Source: an uncultured delta proteobacterium (lineage in GTDB: Bacteria; Myxococcota_A; Polyangia; Polyangiales; Polyangiaceae). From it: a DNA stretch of 64,000 nt. Shown piece by piece: positions 49,258 through 61,279 of the stretch. The position numbers and the translations under genes were made by a program. The stretch is taken from NCBI GenBank assembly GCA_963841435.1, contig CAWJCS010000003.1, positions 1,248,001-1,312,000 of the forward strand, in the 5' to 3' direction. Every line of letters starts with the position of its first letter. The stretch's first letter is position 1. The notes beneath the pieces are model-generated. The model was not told the DNA's origin and searched no databases. It worked only from the letters and a program-made list of their open reading frames with translations.

Positions 49258-51043
49258 TCAGCGCTCGCCCTCGAGGTCCACGGTGCTGGCGAACTCGCGG
49301 TAAAGGGCCGCGTAGTGGCCACCCTTCGCCAAGAGCTCGTGATGGTCACCCCGCTCGACGATACGACCCTGATCGAGCACCAGGACCTGGTCGGCGTGGC
49401 GCACCGTGCTCAGCCGGTGGGCGACGACGAAGCTCGTGCGACCCGCGAGCAGTCGAACGAGAGCCGCCTGCACCCGTGCCTCCGTCACGGTGTCGACCGA
49501 GCTCGTCGCTTCGTCGAGCAAGAGGATGCGAGGATTGGCGAGCATGGCGCGCGCGAAGCAGACGATCTGGCGCTGCCCCAGCGAAAGGCCGCTCCCTCGC
49601 TCGCCGACCTGGGTTTCGAGACCGTCCGGCAAGCCCTCGAGCAGGTCGAGCACGTCGAGCGAGCGCGCCGCCTCACGGACCTCGGAAAGCGATGCTCCCG
49701 GCCTTCCGAGTCGGATGTTGTCCGCGACGCTGCCGGTGAACACGAAGTTTGCCTGCGTTACGCTCGCGATCTGGCGGCGTAGTGACCGGCTCGTCACGCC
49801 GGCGATGTCCCGCCCGTCGACCAGAATCGTGCCGCTCGTCGGTAGATAGAGCTTGGCGACGAGGCTCATGAGCGTGCTCTTGCCGCCGCCCGTCGGGCCG
49901 ACGAGTGCCAGCGTCTGACCGGGCCCTGCCGCGAGCGACACGTGGTCGAGCACGCGCCGACCGGGTTCGTACTCGAACACGACATCGCGAAGCTCGACGC
50001 GCCCCTCGACGGGCGGCAGCTCGGCGGCGCCCGGGGCGTCGCGGAAGTCGGGTGGCTGGTCGAGCAGGGCGAAGACCCGCTCGGCGCCGGCCATGGCCGC
50101 GAGCGCCTGGTTGTACTGGTTGCCGAGCATGGGAATCGCGCCGAAGAAGGCGTTCGACAGGAAGAGGAAGGCGATGAGCGCGTCGAGCGGCACGTGGCCG
50201 GCGAGCGCCTGGTAGCCGCCGACCACGAGCAAGATGGCCAAAAACAGTTGCCCATTGAGCTCGAGCAGCGGCTGGAACACGGCAGCCTGCTTGGCGGCGC
50301 CGAAGTTGTAGCGAGAATGGTCGAAAATGAGCTGGGCGAACAATTCGCCGTTGAGCCCCTGCCGCACGAAGCTCTGGATCTCGCGGATGCCGGTGACGCT
50401 CTCGGCGAGCCGCGCCGTCACACGGCTGAAGCTCTCCTGCTGCGCTCGGTAGGCGCGGCTGAGACCGAGCCGGAAGTAGCGCACGAGCCCCCAAAGGATG
50501 GGCGCCATCGCGAGCACCACCAGAAAGAGCTGCCAGTCGTAGTAAAGCATCATGGCCGCCGAGATCAGCAGATTGCCCAGCTGAACGGTGCTGACGAACG
50601 CCACGTCTTGCACGCCGACGCGCACAACGTCGACGTCAGAGGTGATGCGGCCGAGCAGGCGACCGATCGGCGTGCGCCGAAAGAACGCCATCTGCATCGT
50701 CAGCAGGTGCGCGTAGATCTCGTTTCTCAAGTCGTGGACGACGGCTTCTCCGAGCTCGAGCGCCAGTCGCGAGCGATACACGAAGCAGATCTCCGTCACG
50801 ACGACGAGGGCAAGGAGCCCCGTGACACCACGCACGATGCCGGGTGCGTCCTGGTGCGCGATGGGTCCGCTGATGACGCGGGCGGTCGCCCAGGTGACGA
50901 ACGGCAGCTGGATGGAGCGCACGACGACCAGAAAAAATAGCCAGTTTCGCAGCCGCCGGTGCGGGCGCGTGTAGCCGAGCAAGCGCCGGATGATGGCCGC
51001 TTCGAGCGGACGCTGGTTGAACGCTCCGGGGCGGGCGTTTCAC
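49258..51043 (-). CDS. ABC exporter half-transporter (TMD+NBD), second subunit; +1 frameshift just after the start
   Basis: GPTGGGKST, LSLGQRQ, LLLDEAT, VAHRLST; GTGA overlap with the upstream ABC gene. Confidence 0.9.
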
Positions 51044-52900
51044 GCGCGCACCCCCCGGCCCTCGAGCAGGCTCTGGCTCTCGGGGTCCGCAATCTGTAGG
51101 GCGGCGTTTTCGAAGTACAGCCCTCGCCGTCGCATGAGCTGTTCGTGCGTGCCGTCCTCGACGAGCCGCCCCCGGTCGAGCACGACGATGCGCTCGGCGC
51201 GCCGGAGCGTCGACAGACGGTTGGCGACGAGGAGCGTCGTGCGACCGCGCCGCGCGCCGTCGATGGCATCGAGGATCTCCGTCTCGGTCCTCGCGTCCAC
51301 GGCCGTCGTGGGGTCGTCGAGCAGCAGGATGGGCGGATCGGCGAGCACGGCGCGCGCGATGGCGAGGCGCTGTCGTTGTCCCCCGGAAAGATTGCCCGCG
51401 CCCTCCTCGAGGAGCGTGTCGTAACCTTCGGGAAGGCGCGCCACGAATTCGTGAGCCCCGGCGAGCCGCGCTGCCGCCTCGATGCGCTCCCGGCTCGCGC
51501 CCGGCAGGCCGAACGCGACGTTTTCCGCCACCGTGGCGCGGAAAAGCAGGCTCTCTTGGAAGACCAGGCCCACCTGCCGCCGCAGGCAGTCGAGGTCGAG
51601 CGACCTCACGTCGAAGCCCCCGACTTTCACGCTGCCGGCGGTGGCGTCGAAGAAGCGCGGTACGAGCCCGAGCAGCGTGCTCTTGCCGGCGCCCGTCGCG
51701 CCGAGGATCGCGACGCAGGTCCCGGGCTCGATCCGAAGATCGATGTCGGAAAGCACGTCGCCTGAGCCATAGCGGAACGACACGTGCAATAGCTCGATGC
51801 TGCCCTCTAGGCGCTCACGCACGACCGGCGACGGCGGGCTCTTCACGTCGAGCGGCGCGTCGAGCACCTCGAACACGCGCTCTGCGCCACTCAGGCTCTG
51901 TTGCAGCGTATTGACGATGCCGGCCGCGCTCGCCACCTGCGCCGAGAACTGCTGCAGGAGCCCCGCGAACACGATGAGCTCACCCAGTGAGAGCACGCCG
52001 CGCACGACGAGCGTACCGCCGTACGAAAGCAGCACGGCAACGTTCAGCTGAGAAATGAAGCCGATCGTGGGACTGAAGCGCGAAACGCGCACGAACAGCG
52101 AGTGCTGCGCCGTGCGCACCTCGCGGTTGCGCTCGCGAAAGCGCGCCATCTCCTCCGGCTCGCGCCCGAACACCTTCACGACGAGCATGCCGCGGATGCC
52201 CTCGGCCATCGCCAGAAGCAGGCGGTCGGCGAGCTCGCGCACGTGGAGGTAGCCCGGGCGCACGAGCCGCGAGAAGCGCACCGTCACGAACCACAAGAGC
52301 GGGGTGAGCGCGAGGCACACGAACGTCAAAGCGACGTGCGTGCGCAGCATGTAGACGAGGTAGAGGCCCAGCGAGAGCACCATGATCAGCCCTTGCAGGA
52401 GCACCCCGTCGACGAACGAGCGCACGGACTGCACGTCGCCCGTGACGCGATTGATGATCGAGCCGCTCGCGTTGTCGTCGAAGAAGCGGAAGCTGAGACG
52501 CTGGAGCTTGTCGAACACCCGCGTGCGGAGCTCGGGCACGAGACGGAGGTGCACGAGCTTACCGACCGTGCTGGAATACGCGTACGAAAGCAGCGTACGC
52601 ACGAGCGCCATCCCCAGCACGGCCGCGCCGAGGGCGAGGAGCGTCCGCTCGACACCGAAGCTCTCGGGCGGCGCGACACCGAGCGGCCAGCGCGGAGCCG
52701 GAGAGCCGGGCCTGAGCGCTTTGCGGACGATGTCAACGGCGACGCCGCTCAGACCGAGACCCGTCACGCCGAGCGCGAGCAACGCGACCTGGGTCGCGAA
52801 AATCGTGATGCACTCGCGGGGATAGTCGAAAGCTCAGGGCGAGGAGGCGCCTCACGAGCCCGGCGCTTTCGCTTTCGCGGGGGGCTCCGGGGTCTGACAT
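51040..52900 (-). CDS. ABC exporter half-transporter (TMD+NBD), first subunit; +1 frameshift near 52830
   Basis: GATGAGKST, LSGGQRQ, LLLDDPT, VANRLST; ATG 52900 joins after removing one T. Confidence 0.9.
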
Positions 52901-52960
52901 CGCGGGCGCTTCTTAGCACCGCTCTTCGGGTTCCCGCGCACCGGCTGAACCCGAAGGCAC

Positions 52961-52989
52961 TTGCCGAAGGTCGGGCGCTGGATTATTCT
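52961..52989 (+). promoter_or_regulatory. sigma70 promoter of the leader peptide/DAHP synthase transcript
   Basis: TTGCCG-N17-TATTCT; GTG begins 8 nt after the -10 box. Confidence 0.75.
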
Positions 52990-52996
52990 GAAGTTC

Positions 52997-53074
52997 GTGA
53001 GTTCGGTGCATCGTTTCTATTGGTTCGGCTATTGGCCCGCGGACACGCGGTGCCCAGGGTCGAGCCCCGGCTAG
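52997..53074 (+). CDS. Aromatic-amino-acid-rich attenuator leader peptide MSSVHRFYWFGYWPADTRCPGSSPG
   Basis: GTG AGT TCG GTG CAT CGT TTC TAT TGG TTC GGC TAT TGG ... TAG; 6 of 7 consecutive codons are Phe/Tyr/Trp, directly upstream of DAHP synthase. Confidence 0.85.
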   Translation: MSSVHRFYWFGYWPADTRCPGSSPG

Positions 53075-53096
53075 AACACGAAGCTGCCGAAAGTCG

Positions 53097-53136
53097 AAAC
53101 CCCTGGTCGCCGCAAGCGCCCGGGGGTTTTTCGTTT
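53097..53136 (+). terminator. Attenuator (intrinsic terminator) upstream of DAHP synthase
   Basis: AAACCCCTGG(T)CGC-CGCAA-GCG(C)CCGGGGGTTT followed by TTCGTTT. Confidence 0.85.
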
Positions 53137-53150
53137 AGGGACCCCTTTTC

Positions 53151-54222
53151 ATGCACGAAACCAAGAACCTTCGCATCGTCGATACCACCTTGCTTCAGAG
53201 CCCGGAGACCATCACGACCGAGATCCCCCTCACCCCGAGGGCGGCCGACGTCGTGGTGCGCGCGCGGCGCGAGGTCGAGGCGACAATCCTGGGCAAGAGC
53301 CCCAAGCCCATCGTGATCGTCGGGCCTTGCTCGATTCACGACCCCGAGGCCGCCATCGACTACGCCACGCGCCTGGTTCGACTGCGCGAGCGCGTTTCCG
53401 ACGCGCTCACCGTGATCATGCGCGTCTACTTCGAGAAGCCGCGCACCACGGTCGGCTGGAAGGGGCTCATCAACGATCCGCACCTGAACGGCACGTTCGA
53501 CATCCCGACGGGCATTCGGCGCGCCCGCTCGTTGCTACGCGATCTCGCCGAGCTCGGGATGCCCGCCGCCACGGAGCTGCTCGACCCAATCATCCCGCAG
53601 TACATCGCGGATCTCGGTTTCCTGGGCCGCCATCGGCGCGCGAACCACGGAGAGCCAGACCCACCGCGAGATGGCGAGCGGCCTCTCGATGCCGGTCGGC
53701 TTCAAGAATGGCACGGACGGCTCCTTCGGCGTCGCCATCAACGCCATGCTCGCGGCCGCGCAAGCCCACAGTTTTCTGGGCATCGACGCGCTCGGCCGCG
53801 TGAGCGTCGTACGAACGGCGGGCAACCCTCACACGCACCTCGTGCTGCGCGGCGGCGCGAGCGGACCGAACTACGACGCGGCAGCCGTGGCCCGGGCCGT
53901 GGAAGCGCTCGGCCGCGCGCACGTGACACCGCGCGTGCTCGTCGATGCGAGCCACGACAACAGCCAGAAAAATCACGAGCGCCAGACGGAGGTGTTGGCC
54001 GAGGTGGGTCGGCAGTGGCGCGCGCCGTCGCCCCACGTGATGGGCGTCATGATCGAGAGCAACCTCGTGGCCGGCCGTCAGGATCTCAGGCACGGCGAGC
54101 GGCTCGCCTACGGACAGAGCATCACGGATGCGTGCGTCAACTTTGCGACGACCGAGCAGGCGCTGCTCACCCTCGCCGAAGACGCGGCTCGGCGCAATCT
54201 TCCCGTGGCAGCGGCCGGCTGA
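53151..54222 (+). CDS. DAHP synthase, class I-alpha (AroF/G/H type); +1 frameshift near 53618
   Basis: IVGPCSIHD, MRVYFEKPRTTVGWKGLINDP, AIGARTTESQTHREMASGLSMPVGFKNGTDG, DASHDNS, GVMIESNL, YGQSITDAC. Confidence 0.94.
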
Positions 54223-55854: not shown

Positions 55855-57723
55855 TCACGCTCCGTCGAGCGCGGTCCGCACGGCACGCGCGAGGTCGTCG
55901 GGCAGGTAGGGTTTCGACAGGAAATTCACGCCGGCGTCGACGATACCGTGGTGCACGATGGTGTTCTCCGCGTAGCCCGACGTATAGAGCACCCGGAGCC
56001 CGGGGCGTACCTTGAGTAGGCGATCGGCGAGCTCCTTGCCGGTCATCCTCGGCATCACGAGGTCCGTGACGAGAAGCGCTACCTCGTTCTTCTCGAACAG
56101 GGAGAGCGCTTCGTGGGGGTCGCCCGTGTCGAGGACGCGATACCCGTGCGCAGCCAGGATTCGACCCGCAACCCGTCGCACCATCGCGTCGTCCTCGACC
56201 ATCAGGACGGTCTCTTGCCCGCCTGGCGAGGGCGCTTTCAGCTGAGCGGGTCGCGGCGCTTCGACCTTGATCACGCGCGGCAGGTACACCTTGAAACAAC
56301 TGCCCCTTCCGACCTCGCTGTACACGGAGATGGTGCCGCCACCTTGCTTCACGATGCCGTAGCAAGTGGCCAGTCCGAGACCGGTACCCTTGCCGGGCGC
56401 CTTCGTCGTGAAGAACGGCTCGAAGATGTGCTGCAGCGTCGCGGCGTCGATGCCGAGACCCGTGTCGCTGACACTCAGCATGACGTAGTCACCCGGCGCG
56501 ACCTCGGGATGCAACCCAACGTAGCTCTCGTCGAGCGTCACGTTGCGCGTCTCGAGCGTGAGCACGCCTCCACGTTCCATGGCGTCGCGCGCGTTCACGA
56601 TCAGGTTCACGACCACTTGCTCGATGCGACCGGGGTCGGCGCTCACGATGCCGAGGCCGGCGCCACACTCGGTGACGAGCTGGATGTGCTCGCCGATCAG
56701 GCGCCGCAACATCCGGTCGAGATTTTTGACGAGCTCGTTGAGGTCGAGGGGCCGGGGCTCCACGATCTGGCGTCGCGCAAACGCGAGGAGCTGTTGCGTG
56801 AGCTCGGAGGCCCGCTCGGCCGCCGAGCGGATTTGTCCGAGATCGTCACGTAGCTGGGCACTGGCGGCCGACAAACCCAGGAGATCGACCACGGACAAGA
56901 TCACGGTCAAGAGGTTGTTGAAGTCGTGCGCGACACCTCCCGCGAGCCGCCCGACGCTTTCCATGCGCTGTGCCTGCCGGAGCTGCTCTTCGAGGCTACG
57001 CCGAGCCGAAATGTCCCGGAGCGCCGTCACGCGCAGGCGGCGCTCACCGAGAAGGAGCGTCTTTCCCTGTGCCTCGACCGGGAACGTCGTGCCGTCGGCG
57101 CGGCGCGCCATGTGCTCGTACAAGCCCTCCGCTCCCGAGCGAATGTGCGCTTCCACCTTGCTTCGGCTTTCGGGTGCGACAAATTCCATCACCGGCTTGC
57201 CAATGAGATCCTCGCGCGACACGCCGAGGAGGCTGGCGAGCTGCTGGTTCACCTCGACGACGAGGCCCTGCTCGGTGATTCCGATCCCCTCGAATGCCGC
57301 TTCCGAGAGCTTGCGAAAACGCTCCTCGCTCTCCCTCAGCGACTGCTCGGCCGCCTGGCGCTCGCCGATGTCCCGCGCCACGACGCAGAGTAGCGTCCTT
57401 CCGTCAACCACTGTGCGCCCGATCCGCACGTCGACGCTGATGAGCGAGCCGTCGTGGCGCCGCAGCGGACGCGTTCCCAGTGCGATTTCACCCGTGCGCA
57501 GAACCTCGTCGGCGCGCGCCCGCATGACGTCGCTCGACAACGTCACGACCTGCTCGAGCGGAAGGTCGGCGACCTCCGCGGGCGAATACCCGAGCTGCTG
57601 GCAAAACGCCTGGTTCGCCGTGATGACGCTGAGCGTCGTGGGATCGACGAGGACCACGACATCGGTCTCCAGCGACATCACCGCCGCCCCCAGAAAGCGA
57701 AGATAGTCGTCCGCGCCGCTCAC
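55855..57723 (-). CDS. Hybrid histidine kinase (2 PAS, HisKA, HATPase, receiver)
   Basis: GRLAGGVAHDFNNLL, NARDAM, FEPFFTTK..GKGTGLGL, VTDLVMP, FLSKP. Confidence 0.93.
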   Translation of the reverse strand: MSGADDYLRFLGAAVMSLETDVVVLVDPTTLSVITANQAFCQQLGYSPAEVADLPLEQVVTLSSDVMRARADEVLRTGEIALGTRPLRRHDGSLISVDVRIGRTVVDGRTLLCVVARDIGERQAAEQSLRESEERFRKLSEAAFEGIGITEQGLVVEVNQQLASLLGVSREDLIGKPVMEFVAPESRSKVEAHIRSGAEGLYEHMARRADGTTFPVEAQGKTLLLGERRLRVTALRDISARRSLEEQLRQAQRMESVGRLAGGVAHDFNNLLTVILSVVDLLGLSAASAQLRDDLGQIRSAAERASELTQQLLAFARRQIVEPRPLDLNELVKNLDRMLRRLIGEHIQLVTECGAGLGIVSADPGRIEQVVVNLIVNARDAMERGGVLTLETRNVTLDESYVGLHPEVAPGDYVMLSVSDTGLGIDAATLQHIFEPFFTTKAPGKGTGLGLATCYGIVKQGGGTISVYSEVGRGSCFKVYLPRVIKVEAPRPAQLKAPSPGGQETVLMVEDDAMVRRVAGRILAAHGYRVLDTGDPHEALSLFEKNEVALLVTDLVMPRMTGKELADRLLKVRPGLRVLYTSGYAENTIVHHGIVDAGVNFLSKPYLPDDLARAVRTALDGA

Positions 57724-57777
57724 CGGGGCAGTGTCTTCTGCAGGTCCTCGGCGTCAAGCACGTGCCCCTCCTGTCGC

Positions 57778-60700
57778 TCAGTTCAGTCGGATCTCCGATC
57801 CCACCTCGGCACGCTGACGCCGCGCCCTGCTCACGGTTGCGGCGTGGATCGGATCGGCCCCGATCGTGCCCTCGAGCGCCGTCAGGTACTCCTCGGCGCT
57901 CACGCGCTCGAGCTCTCGCTCGGCGAAGACCAGGCGCTCCTCGATGCCGAGCCGCAGCGCTTCTTCGCGATGGCCTGGGCGCGTCAAGAACTCGCGCAGC
58001 GCGTGCACGTGGCGTGTCCAGAGCTCGAACGTCCCTCTCTTGCTTCACGAGTAACCGTTCAGCGTACCAGTCGCTGCCGAGCAATGCCTCGCGCATGAAC
58101 ATCGCGCGCACGTCCGGATGCCGCGCGTCTTTGCCCTCGAAATGGCCGTGAAGCATGATGTGGAGCAGCGCGCGTACCGGCGGACAAGCATCTTCGACAC
58201 TGCCGTCCTTGAAGTAGGCGGCGGCGACGCGGCGCTGAGCGTCGACGATGTTGTCGACGCCGTCGGCGAACACATCGAGGTCCTGCTGCTCCGGGCGCAG
58301 AATCTCTTCGCTGAAAACGCTGCCCGGGTTGTCGAACACTCGTCCGAAGAAGGTGTGCACGAACTTGTCGGTGATGCGATAGCCGAGCCGACTCGCGAGC
58401 ACGCGCCGTCCGCCATGGTCGAAATCCTCGACTCGCTCGAGATGCCCTTCGGCGATGAGCCGCTCGGGGTCGCGTTCGCGCGGGAACAGCCGGCACCAGA
58501 GCTCGGGCACGAGCAGGCTGATGTCGTGATCGAAACGATAGTGCGGGCCGATCCAGCCTGCCGCCGAGCTGAAGCCCGCGTAGTCGCACAGGATCATCGA
58601 AACGAGCGCGTTGTTGAGGTCGGCCGTCGCGCAGAGCGCGTTGAAGGGTCCCTTCGTGAGCGCGCCTTCCGTCCCCGCGCCGGTCGTGCTCGGGGACTTG
58701 CCCGTCACGGAACAGATGTAGTCCATGAAGAGCTCTGGCAGCTCCTGATAGTGAATCGGCCCGTACACGCAGAGCGGCTTGATGGCGCCGTCGGGCGGAT
58801 TGTTGCGCCGCCCCGAGAGCACGCTGATCACGGGGAACACCACGGGCTCCTCGATGGGGATCTTGCGGCTCAGGCGCGCGCCCATGTCCGCCACGTAGCG
58901 ATCGATCGGTCGCGACGCGTCCGGGCGCGTCTGCAGGTAGCGCGGGTTCTTGCTGGGCTTGCCGCCGACCAGGCGCGGCCGCGCGGAGCAGATCGAGTAG
59001 CCGGGACCGCGCGCACCGTTGTACCCGAGGTGCTTGCGCATCGGCTCCGTGAACGCGTCGAACAGGGCCACCTCCTCGACGATGTTCAGGACGTCAGCCT
59101 GCCCGAGCGGCTGGAAGTTCGAACAGAAGAGACCCGGCGAAGCCATGTCCGACTCCGTCTGCTTGTCGAAGCCCGGGTGAATGGCCTCGTCGGGGCGCTG
59201 GAACAGCCGCCACTCGCAATTTTCGGCAATTTTCAAGCTGGGATGGCCGTCGTACTCCTTGGGCAGCCCCAAGAGAGCCGTCGCGGGAACCACGGTCGAG
59301 GCACTGATGTCGTCCTCCATCTGCACCTTGTCGGCCGCGACGAAATCCTGGCGCAGCTTGTACGTGCGCCACGCACCGTTCTCCTCCAGACCGATCCGGA
59401 GGTAGCTGCCAACGAGCTTGCGCTTGTCGTACTTGAGCTCGTGGCCGGGAGCCCCGTTGATGATGTCGACGCTGAAGTGCCGCTGCCAGTCGTCGCCCCA
59501 ATCGGCGCGATAGAAGCGCTTGATCACGAACACGAGCGCGCGGATGTGCTGCGGCAGGCTCTCGACCCAAGCGTTGTGCTCTGCCGCGTAGTCCGAGCTC
59601 GGCGTGAGTAGCTTGATCACCGAGCCGAGCGAGCGCTCCTGCGAAAGAATCGGCCGACTGCTGCGCGAGTCCTCGTGCCCATCGGGGTAAAATTCCCGCT
59701 TCAAGATCGAGTTGACGAGCTCGAGATCAGCCTTCAAATTCTGTACGAGGATGGGTCCATAGAGCACGGCATCGCTCAGGCTCTTGCTGATCTCGGACTT
59801 TCCTCCACCCGACACCGTGCACGGCTTGTGACAGAACGTCCCCTCGGGCACGGTGCCCACGAGGCGGTAGCTCGGCGCCGCCGGGTGCTTCTCCAGGCGG
59901 ATTTTGTAGCCGTTCGGCAGGATGTACACGTGCCCCGGCAGGAGCTTCAGCCGCGCCTCGTCGTCGCCGCGCGCCCACTTCACCACCTGCTTCTTGACGT
60001 CGAAATCGGAGTCCTCGGGCACGTAGTGGATCTGGGGGTAGAGCCGGTCGGTGGCGTAGCCCGACGCGTGAAGATCCACCCGATCTCCGAGAAGCTCGAG
60101 CGCGTCGGTGAAACGGTGCTCGGCGGCGATGTGACGGCCGTCCGGCGCGTAGCCGTCGCCGTGGCTCACGGTCGAGAACGCGAGGGCCCCACCGGCGTGC
60201 TCCTCCTCGGCGAGACCGTAGAGGTTCGCGCTGTAGCTGATCTGCGTCTTTACCTCTTTCTTGCAGTAGCCGAAGTAGTTGTCAGCGAGGATCGTCACCA
60301 TCACGCCGCGCTCGCTACGCGCCGTGATCTTGAAGGGGCTGCCGCCGTTGTACGGCTCGCTCTCGTCCGACCAGCACATGCCGTTCGCGCGCTGCTCTTC
60401 GGTTGCCTCGCTCGCGTGAGGCAGGCCGAGATCCTTCTTCTTGAGGCGCGTGAGATGCGGCGCGAGGATCACGCAGCCGGTGTGTCCGGTCCACCTCTCG
60501 ACGTCGAGGCCCGCATCGTTCTCGGGTAGGTACGGATCGCCCCAATTGCCGAAGATGCTCTCGACGAAATCGAGATTCGACACGAGGCCGCCCGGCGCAA
60601 AAAAGCGCACTTCGAGCCGTTTCTCGCTCGAGAGCCGCGGCACGGCGGGGCAGACGAGCGGGCGCAAGAGCAGCGAAACCATGGTCTCCACGGGCTCGTC

Positions 60701-61279
60701 CCAGCCGGAGCTGAACGGCAGGCGCAAAAGATGCGCCGGCGGCCTGAACGCCTCCCGCAGCATGCGCGCGTACGCCACGAGCGGCACGGCCACCTTGTCC
60801 CCCGGTACCGGCAGGCCCACCTGTGCGACGTGGAAGACACCCTGCGTCGTGCGTCTGTCGTTGAGCGGATTGTGGAGCACGCCGTTGTCGAGGCGGTAGC
60901 TCGTGACGACCTCGTTGTGCCAGTGGTCCGCGTCGATCGGCAGCGAGAGCTCGCGCGCGAGCCCGTAGCGATCGAGAATGAAGGTCCCGGAAGGAATGCG
61001 GAGCTCGGGCTCGTCCGGAAGCTCTCTAAACAGGTCGTCGAGAAAATCTTTGACGCGGCGATCGGTGGGGCAGAGGTGATCGCTGAGCAAGCGGCTCTGC
61101 TCGCGAAAACGCGCGAACAGATCGCGCCCCAGATCGAGCACCTCGGTATCGCCGACGTGCCTCGGCACGCGAAATCCCATCGCCGCGAGCTTGAGCACGA
61201 TGGAGCGGATGACCACGCGGCGGTCGGGGACCGCCATTTGCCCGTCCCCCCTGAGACCAACCTGTCGCTCGAGATCCAT
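57778..61279 (-). CDS. Probable PPi-dependent PEP carboxykinase (PEP carboxytransphosphorylase); frameshift near 58027
   Basis: About 1170 aa after correction; LHNP..DRRTTQGVFH, NYFGYCKKEVK, CHKPCTVSGGGKSEISKS, TGKSPSTTGAGTEGALTKGPFNA; C-terminal L.GTIGADP in the next frame. Confidence 0.82.

Follow-up and report, generated by a model that had tools for sequence, protein, structure and literature searches.

The leaders of the Escherichia coli trp and phe operons, trpL and pheL, are preceded by Shine-Dalgarno (SD) sequences, and those of the thr and ilvGMEDA operons read several amino acids. In the latter two, as in the leader described here, a single RNA carries codons that specify more than one end product of a branched pathway, and an OR-like logic of this type is known. 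Both thr and ilvGMEDA are listed among the attenuated operons (PMC1183508). At trpL and pheL the control codons are followed by region II, the pairings II:III and III:IV exclude each other, and the outcome depends on a race between ribosome and polymerase (PMC1183508, PMC11802643); the leader analyzed in this work is laid out in the same way. A close likeness is the aroR-aroF system of Corynebacterium glutamicum, in which a short leader ORF with aromatic codons also precedes a DAHP synthase gene and ribosome stalling raises transcription (PMC11802643, PMC4046766); aroR is described as answering Phe limitation and not Tyr availability (PMC11802643). A predicted upstream ORF followed by an intrinsic terminator, uORFC-13-1, similarly stands before aroF in Acholeplasma (PMC8632094), and a possible Tyr attenuator has been proposed at aroF of Shewanella (PMC2659441).

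The window, i.e., the whole stretch of 64,000 nucleotides analyzed here, contains a class I-alpha DAHP synthase gene of the aroFGH family (53151..54222, plus strand, ATG at 53151) that belongs to an AroF-like clade and scores over the TIGR00034 cut-off in both of its halves. Upstream of this gene on the same strand is an unannotated ORF of 25 codons (52997..53074) with a GTG start, no SD sequence, and a TAG stop at 53072-53074. Its codons 7-13 (53015..53035), referred to below as segment 1, read F-Y-W-F-G-Y-W, so that two Phe, two Tyr, and two Trp codons (six aromatic codons within seven) are present exactly as the initial annotation had described. A predicted sigma-70-type promoter (52961..52989, plus strand) comprises the -35 box TTGCCG at 52961-52966, a 17-nt spacer, and the -10 box TATTCT at 52984-52989, which is separated by 7 nt from the GTG at 52997; a second in-frame start, TTG 52961, sits within the -35 box itself. 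The promoter has 7 of the 12 sigma-70 consensus bases and the stem of the terminator described below contains a mismatch; a simple consensus scan of the window for promoters and terminators picked up neither the leader promoter nor the terminator. Two ABC exporter genes arranged in tandem on the minus strand (49258-52900) diverge from the leader promoter.

The RNA between the control codons and the DAHP synthase gene is predicted to form two helices that share one strand. Segment 2 (53047..53063), the 5' arm of the antiterminator, was delimited from folds, consensus structure, and pair counts; it lies inside the ORF and begins 11 nt past the last Trp codon. Segment 3 (53094..53113) is the shared switch strand, which would serve as the 3' arm of the antiterminator or as the 5' arm and loop of an intrinsic-type terminator (3:4, 53096..53136) with a G+C core pairing 53100-53110 with 53116-53126 and a U5-CG-U3 tail at 53127-53136. 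The antiterminator, in which 53047-53052 pair with 53108-53113, 53054-53059 with 53101-53106, and 53060-53063 with 53094-53097, is the minimum-energy fold of 53040-53116 (-34.0 kcal/mol, z -3.2, 1 of 200 shuffles equally good). The GC-rich terminator that had been proposed for this site is borne out by a stem of 53096-53110 with 53116-53130 (-22.7 kcal/mol, z -2.5, 3 of 200 shuffles equally good) and a U-tract extending to 53136. The SD-like sequence AGGGA of the DAHP synthase gene, assigned from the sequence (53137..53141, plus strand), is outside the terminator stem. The fold of the entire leader beats 200 of 200 shuffles (z -3.65) and takes the shape of a 1:2 hairpin plus the terminator. 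The 1:2 hairpin (53022..53066), a putative protector and possible pause site in which 53022-53030 pair with 53058-53066 and 53034-53041 with 53046-53054, comes from the centroid fold of 52997-53080 with a z of only -1.6 and 19 of 200 shuffles equally good. The antiterminator had initially been drawn as a pairing of 53054-53063 with 53094-53106; these pairs are indeed part of the minimum-energy fold, but the helix that is conserved among relatives is 53047-53059 with 53101-53113, longer by six pairs (53047-53052 with 53108-53113), and the TCGA extension included in the original drawing appears in this genome only. We have accordingly dropped the TCGA extension as a conserved element of the switch.

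The probability that this arrangement arose by chance in its own genome is low. When all 35,130 of its small ORFs were scanned, at least five aromatic codons in eight were present in 21, and a terminator-like hairpin lies behind two of these 21; only the window leader has six such codons and stands directly before an aromatic-pathway gene. No further copy of the attenuator was detected in the genome by the covariance model described below, the next best match elsewhere being partial, with an E-value of 0.008. The same genome contains, on the minus strand of contig G000:C6 at about 29615, a Leu/Val/Ile-rich small ORF with a terminator ahead of an acetolactate synthase-like gene (N-terminus), which is likely a branched-chain attenuator.

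To judge conservation we collected 36 genomes of the same genus, 34 of which encode a close ortholog of the window DAHP synthase; the remaining two (67% and 83% complete) have a paralog only. In the enzyme tree, named records labelled Polyangiaceae, Myxococcota group within the clade formed by these orthologs. The complete leader precedes 33 of the 34 orthologs; the remaining leader is truncated where its contig stops but retains segment 2 and the terminator. For other genera of the family, 40 loci (the 31 best and 9 lower-ranked) were fetched from about 200 matches in a 300-genome search; the aromatic leader with the same terminator is present in 27 of these 40 loci and missing from 13. In the FastTree tree of the enzymes, where the window is represented by a row of only 155 aa, two of the 13 loci without the attenuator (L143 and L160) fall inside the clade of attenuated enzymes and the rest fall outside. 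The attenuator was also identified at two loci of another family (L042 and L053); at 10 further loci of the order (L043-L052), the best-matching DAHP synthase gene has no such leader. A covariance model was then built from 63 aligned leaders, one row of which (L022) derives from an unpublished genome (G033) and carries no claim on its own. The model matches 29 of 150 genomes sampled from the order at E <= 0.001, including, besides the window and three training loci, 10 new full-length matches at E <= 1.3e-6. All 10 of these strong matches precede a DAHP synthase gene and encode an aromatic leader; five weaker matches that were checked neither encode an aromatic leader nor stand before DAHP synthase. 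In a 150-genome sample of the phylum there was no strong full-length match except the window, the best others being partial terminator matches with E-values of at least 5e-7. Among the genomes searched, members of the putative RNA family were thus confined to the order. Conservation of the aromatic upstream ORF, put forward at the outset as a check of the attenuator, is evident from the 33 of 34 same-genus loci, the 27 of 40 loci from other genera, and the 10 of 10 new strong matches, with the qualification that the genomes are related and these counts are not independent.

The leader ORFs of the 63 aligned loci are 18-27 codons long. The peptide varies in length and shows no conservation beyond the aromatic run; within the genus its core is similar. 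Within the best nine-codon stretch, Phe is present in 63 of 63 leaders, Tyr in 63 of 63, and Trp in 61 of 63; each leader has 5-8 aromatic codons, and two Trp codons are found in 43 of the 63. Trp is also encoded in 9 of the 10 new strong model matches. The claim of an attenuator preceding DAHP synthase is upheld by this conservation of all three types of aromatic codon, together with the TIGR00034 assignment. The order of the codons differs by genus (FWFGYW, YFYWY, RWFFY, WWFTY, FTW), and because of this variation the leaders point to selection on amino-acid identity and not on one RNA sequence. Codon choice within the leaders differs from that of the genes they precede: the TTT:TTC ratio is 115:49 in the leaders vs. 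60:273 in the DAHP synthase genes, and the TAT:TAC ratio is 55:49 vs. 76:292 in the downstream genes. Biased control codons are described as a trait of known attenuators (PMC1183508).

Both helices are kept among the aligned leaders well above the level of slid controls. Antiterminator pairs hold in 82.7% of cells over 63 rows (slid controls, 41.6-64.6%), and terminator pairs, which show 11 two-sided cells, hold in 89.1% (slid controls, 35.9-55.2%); every one of the 63 rows has a G+C stem with U-rich sequence behind it. RNAalifold, applied to structure-blind alignments, picks the antiterminator as the consensus structure, with two-sided change in 0 of 8 pairs in 36 rows. Covariation in the antiterminator amounts to only four two-sided cells in the 63 rows, and its score of 0.079 is below those of two slid controls (0.100 and 0.094). 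Of the covarying helices that had been anticipated, the maintenance of pairing is seen, but the covariation is thin. The best single sign of the antiterminator is a G:C to C:G swap, in which the distal hexamers GCGGCG:CGCCGC (30 of 63 rows) are replaced by GCCGCG:CGCGGY in nine rows of one genus; this represents one event in one genus, picked out by a counting search that favours pairing. The swapped base lies in the terminator loop, therefore it is compensated only in the antiterminator, and the loop bases are conserved as antiterminator partners. The mutual exclusion of the two helices that had been postulated for the window agrees with both the predicted folds and the pair counts, within the limits of this thin covariation.

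A -35 box located 36 nt ahead of the start places the +1 position on the start codon itself. At 28 of 30 loci, a TTG-N16-18-TA pattern stands ahead of the start codon of the leader. Of 29 leaders from outside the genus, 12 resemble the window in having the -35 box at 35-37 nt ahead of the start, eight have it at 38-44 nt, and nine are without a box found. In 32 of the 33 other same-genus leaders the box lies 38-43 nt upstream, which implies an untranslated leader of 2-7 nt, and the distance from the -10 box to the start is 9-13 nt in 27 of 28 same-genus leaders. SD-like motifs occur ahead of the leader start in only 5 of 63 leaders. The initial annotation placed the +1 on the G of the GTG; this is compatible with the spacing in the window and in the 12 leaders outside the genus but not in the 32 other leaders of the same genus, which speak against strict leaderlessness as a trait of the family. 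We propose that the family is leaderless or very short-leadered and SD-less, its start sites being predicted. In C. glutamicum, aroR is said to have been found leaderless by Neshat et al. in 2014.

The switch was modeled by folding 36 leaders that were cut just after segment 3, with the RNA masked up to 12 nt beyond the ribosomal A site. With the ribosome stalled at every aromatic codon in turn, the antiterminator forms in 35 of 36 leaders; with a ribosome that has reached the stop codon, it forms in 2 of 36. For stalls no further than offset +4, counted from the first Trp codon, the mean pairing of segment 3 is 0.84; beyond this it declines to 0.69, 0.43 (at +6), 0.28, and 0.13 (at +8). In most leaders the offset of +4 corresponds to the last aromatic codon, so that the run of control codons extends just to the point beyond which a stall is no longer effective. 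In 44 of 63 leaders, 10-14 nt separate the last aromatic codon from segment 2. When the complete terminator is present, equilibrium folding prefers it despite a stalled ribosome in 18 of the 21 leaders listed, and therefore the switch must be kinetic and co-transcriptional. The proposal that stalling frees the antiterminator and that a ribosome at the TAG occludes it holds in the truncated-transcript models but not in most of the equilibrium folds with the full terminator. In the absence of a ribosome, 20 of 36 leaders form the 2:3 helix (the window value is 0.04), hence a 1:2 protector is not general.

Taken together, we consider it highly probable that the locus encodes a ribosome-mediated transcription attenuator that reads charged tRNA-Phe, tRNA-Tyr, and tRNA-Trp and controls an AroF-like DAHP synthase. 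The ORF, the content and conservation of its codons, the two exclusive helices, the spacing, and the linkage to DAHP synthase are observed; the start site, translation, termination, and the response to each amino acid are predicted as follows. Transcription would start at the leader start codon or a few bases ahead of it, and a ribosome would load on the leader without an SD sequence. When the aromatic tRNAs are charged, the ribosome would cover segment 2 (53047-53063) and reach the stop codon at 53072-53074, so that segment 3 would pair with segment 4 and transcription would end near 53131-53136. A ribosome slowed within codons 7-13 would instead hold segment 1 and leave segment 2 free to pair with segment 3 ahead of the synthesis of segment 4, and the polymerase would enter the DAHP synthase gene. 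Since each amino acid is represented by roughly two codons, delays that add up are a likelier response than a sharp OR-gate.

The same attenuator could effectively respond to one or two of the three amino acids (Phe, or Phe and Tyr), with the Trp codons serving RNA pairing or adding a minor delay and no three-way gate being formed. This reading recalls the response of C. glutamicum aroR to Phe and not to Tyr (PMC11802643), and modeling has associated mixed control regions with a lower sensitivity to any one amino acid (PMC1183508); moreover, both TGG codons of the window touch the 1:2 hairpin, a distal TGG belongs to segment 2 in one genus, and Trp is dispensed with in 2 of the 63 aligned leaders and 1 of the 10 new ones. 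Yet 61 of 63 leaders retain Trp, at positions that vary and even where the 1:2 helix is not conserved, 43 leaders have two Trp codons, and the independent-looking leaders of rhizobia, Dyella, and Micrococcales likewise combine F, Y, and W; we therefore regard a sensor of one or two amino acids as an unlikely reading, albeit one to be taken seriously.

Two further explanations dispense with attenuation as the main event, and we find the one improbable and the other more so. If control were exerted mainly through translation, mRNA stability, or Rho, the hairpin with its broken U-tract would be a weak pause; the interruption of the tract (U5-CG-U3 in the window, weaker in one genus), the failure of the consensus scan to return a terminator, and the SD-like sequence directly behind the U-tract are in line with this. 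The position of that SD-like sequence outside the 3:4 stem speaks against sequestration, as does the wide variation in the distance from terminator to start codon (75-134 nt from stop to ATG), unlike that of an SD-sequestering hairpin, and the presence of a G+C stem with U-rich sequence in all 63 rows argues for termination. More generally, U-tracts are interrupted across the leaders, strongly so in one genus. The ORF might otherwise encode a small hydrophobic peptide with a function of its own, or the transcript might be an independent sRNA that the terminator simply ends, as is hinted at by the similarity of the peptide core within the genus and by the S. meliloti trpL case, in which the attenuator RNA and the leader peptide, once released, are described as acting in trans. 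We give this very little weight: the peptide is not conserved outside the aromatic run, all strong model matches precede DAHP synthase genes, the stretch from terminator to gene (14 nt in the window) shows no sign of a second promoter, and a role in trans could supplement attenuation while leaving segment 2 unexplained.

A +1 frameshift near 53616-53619 interrupts the DAHP synthase gene of the window, as seen from alignment with relatives, all 13 of 13 same-genus genomes having uninterrupted matches of 343-348 aa. Compared with the copy in a relative, the neighboring ABC transporter shifts frame in its N-terminal part at about 52830, and a large gene at 57488-61279 (minus strand) shifts near 58400 compared with relatives. 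Of 16 other loci of the genome that relatives' proteins match, 2 likewise contain frame changes, and indel errors in the assembly are likely. One 151-nt record is identical to the window over 53064-53214, and none of the identical records listed extends across the frameshift; a single letter at 53617 is missing from two contigs of relatives, a weak pointer. The frameshift is probably a sequencing or assembly error rather than a sign of a true pseudogene in the strain. No downstream gene is conserved among 27 loci, therefore no operon is claimed; the gene at 57488-61279, which matches no NCBIfam family, adjoins DAHP synthase in some relatives.

The genome encodes three class I-alpha DAHP synthases, of which only that of the window has an attenuator, and no class II enzyme was found in it. 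The paralog L032 (G000:C5:549548) belongs to the same clade as the window enzyme and has a different upstream region without a leader, and the paralog L031, likewise without a leader, belongs to a separate, AroG-leaning clade. The suggestion that one RNA takes the place of three isoenzymes is therefore contradicted by the two unattenuated genes. The attenuated enzymes begin with T-K-[N/D]-L-R-I (53151-53180 in the window), and the paralog L031 retains the T-D-D of the best solved matches, a motif we take to be part of the DAHP synthase feedback site. Attenuated and unattenuated paralogs may differ in feedback.

We also scanned and inspected 77 loci from other lineages (L060-L136) for leaders before DAHP synthase. 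F/Y/W leaders were identified at five loci of Bradyrhizobium (L087:1322-1454, L089, L106, L111, and L131), two of Mesorhizobium (L117 and L133), one of an uncultured alphaproteobacterium and one of Dyella (L104 and L123:1317-1458, respectively), two of Arthrobacter (L076:1279-1338 and L121), and two of Microbacterium (L118:1321-1377 and L125). The Bradyrhizobium and Mesorhizobium leaders, L104, and the Dyella leader have an antiterminator/terminator pair and no counterpart in Rfam, and upon folding four rhizobial-type leaders and that of Dyella form the antiterminator or the terminator according to the position of the ribosome. The four Micrococcales leaders have 18-19 codons with W-Y-A-Y-F and are apparently leaderless; in folding they switch between other long alternative helices with no clear U-tract, which suggests a different switch design. 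Promoter spacing is compatible with a leaderless start in several of the non-myxobacterial leaders. Two loci, L085 (Paenalcaligenes) and L122, have leaders with Phe and Tyr only and a terminator before DAHP synthase. The Polyangiales covariance model scores the rhizobial leaders weakly (13.8-23 bits) and their enzymes belong to another clade; we treat the leaders outside Polyangiales as presumed analogues. We tentatively propose, as a generalization that we think slightly less apt to hold than to fail, that a leaderless or nearly leaderless F/Y/W leader of DAHP synthase that truly answers each of the three amino acids is a widespread, undescribed form of control over entry into the shikimate pathway in bacteria without TrpR or TyrR, shared by Polyangiales, rhizobia, Dyella, and Micrococcales. 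Because the enzyme clades are separate and the hairpin designs different, such leaders would have arisen or been captured several times, and in Polyangiales the leader would mark one paralog as a starvation-induced isoenzyme beside unattenuated ones.

No TrpR- or TyrR-type HTH domain was found in the genome (95% complete) and no Trp leader was seen at trpE, a regulatory blank that the device could fill by sensing all three aromatic amino acids at the step that opens their common pathway. A leader ORF of this kind would escape annotation. Versions of the leader in culturable, tractable Bradyrhizobium, Mesorhizobium, and Arthrobacter make the integration of three signals by a mixed-codon leader testable, aroR, the one DAHP synthase leader put to the test, having answered to a single amino acid. 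The element also lends itself readily to engineering that deregulates aromatic flux, and it is a candidate for a pan-aromatic biosensor.

A search of Rfam with positions 52500-53400 of the window returned no family at its gathering score (best 17.6 bits vs. a gathering score of 70), and 16 related loci yielded only two tRNAs and no leader family; the family is absent from Rfam. The literature search retrieved no F/Y/W leader on DAHP synthase and none in myxobacteria: the portions available of PMC1262725, PMC2965389, and PMC4833913 mention no such leader, and the supplements of the screens PMC2965389 and PMC5314783 may list such sites. Among the described systems, the Acholeplasma element uORFC-13-1 differs from the window leader in having an RBS, at least one Phe codon that derives from a U run, and, in the text available, no described cluster of Tyr and Trp codons, and it is recorded from Acholeplasma and environmental sequences only (PMC8632094). 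The thr and ilvGMEDA leaders serve the threonine and branched-chain pathways, whereas the Polyangiales leader is aromatic. The window leader has every feature of the trpL/pheL type that was examined (leader ORF, target gene, exclusive helices, and codon placement), save a general 1:2 hairpin; however, trpL and pheL each answer one amino acid and control terminal-branch operons, whereas the Polyangiales leader would answer three at the common first step. C. glutamicum aroR, compared here by description, reads Phe-Tyr-Phe without Trp, whereas the leaders of Polyangiales, a group from a different phylum, contain F, Y, and W. What is new is the addition of Trp, the occurrence in a new order, and an RNA with no Rfam family; the mechanism itself is textbook attenuation, for which aroR is the direct precedent.
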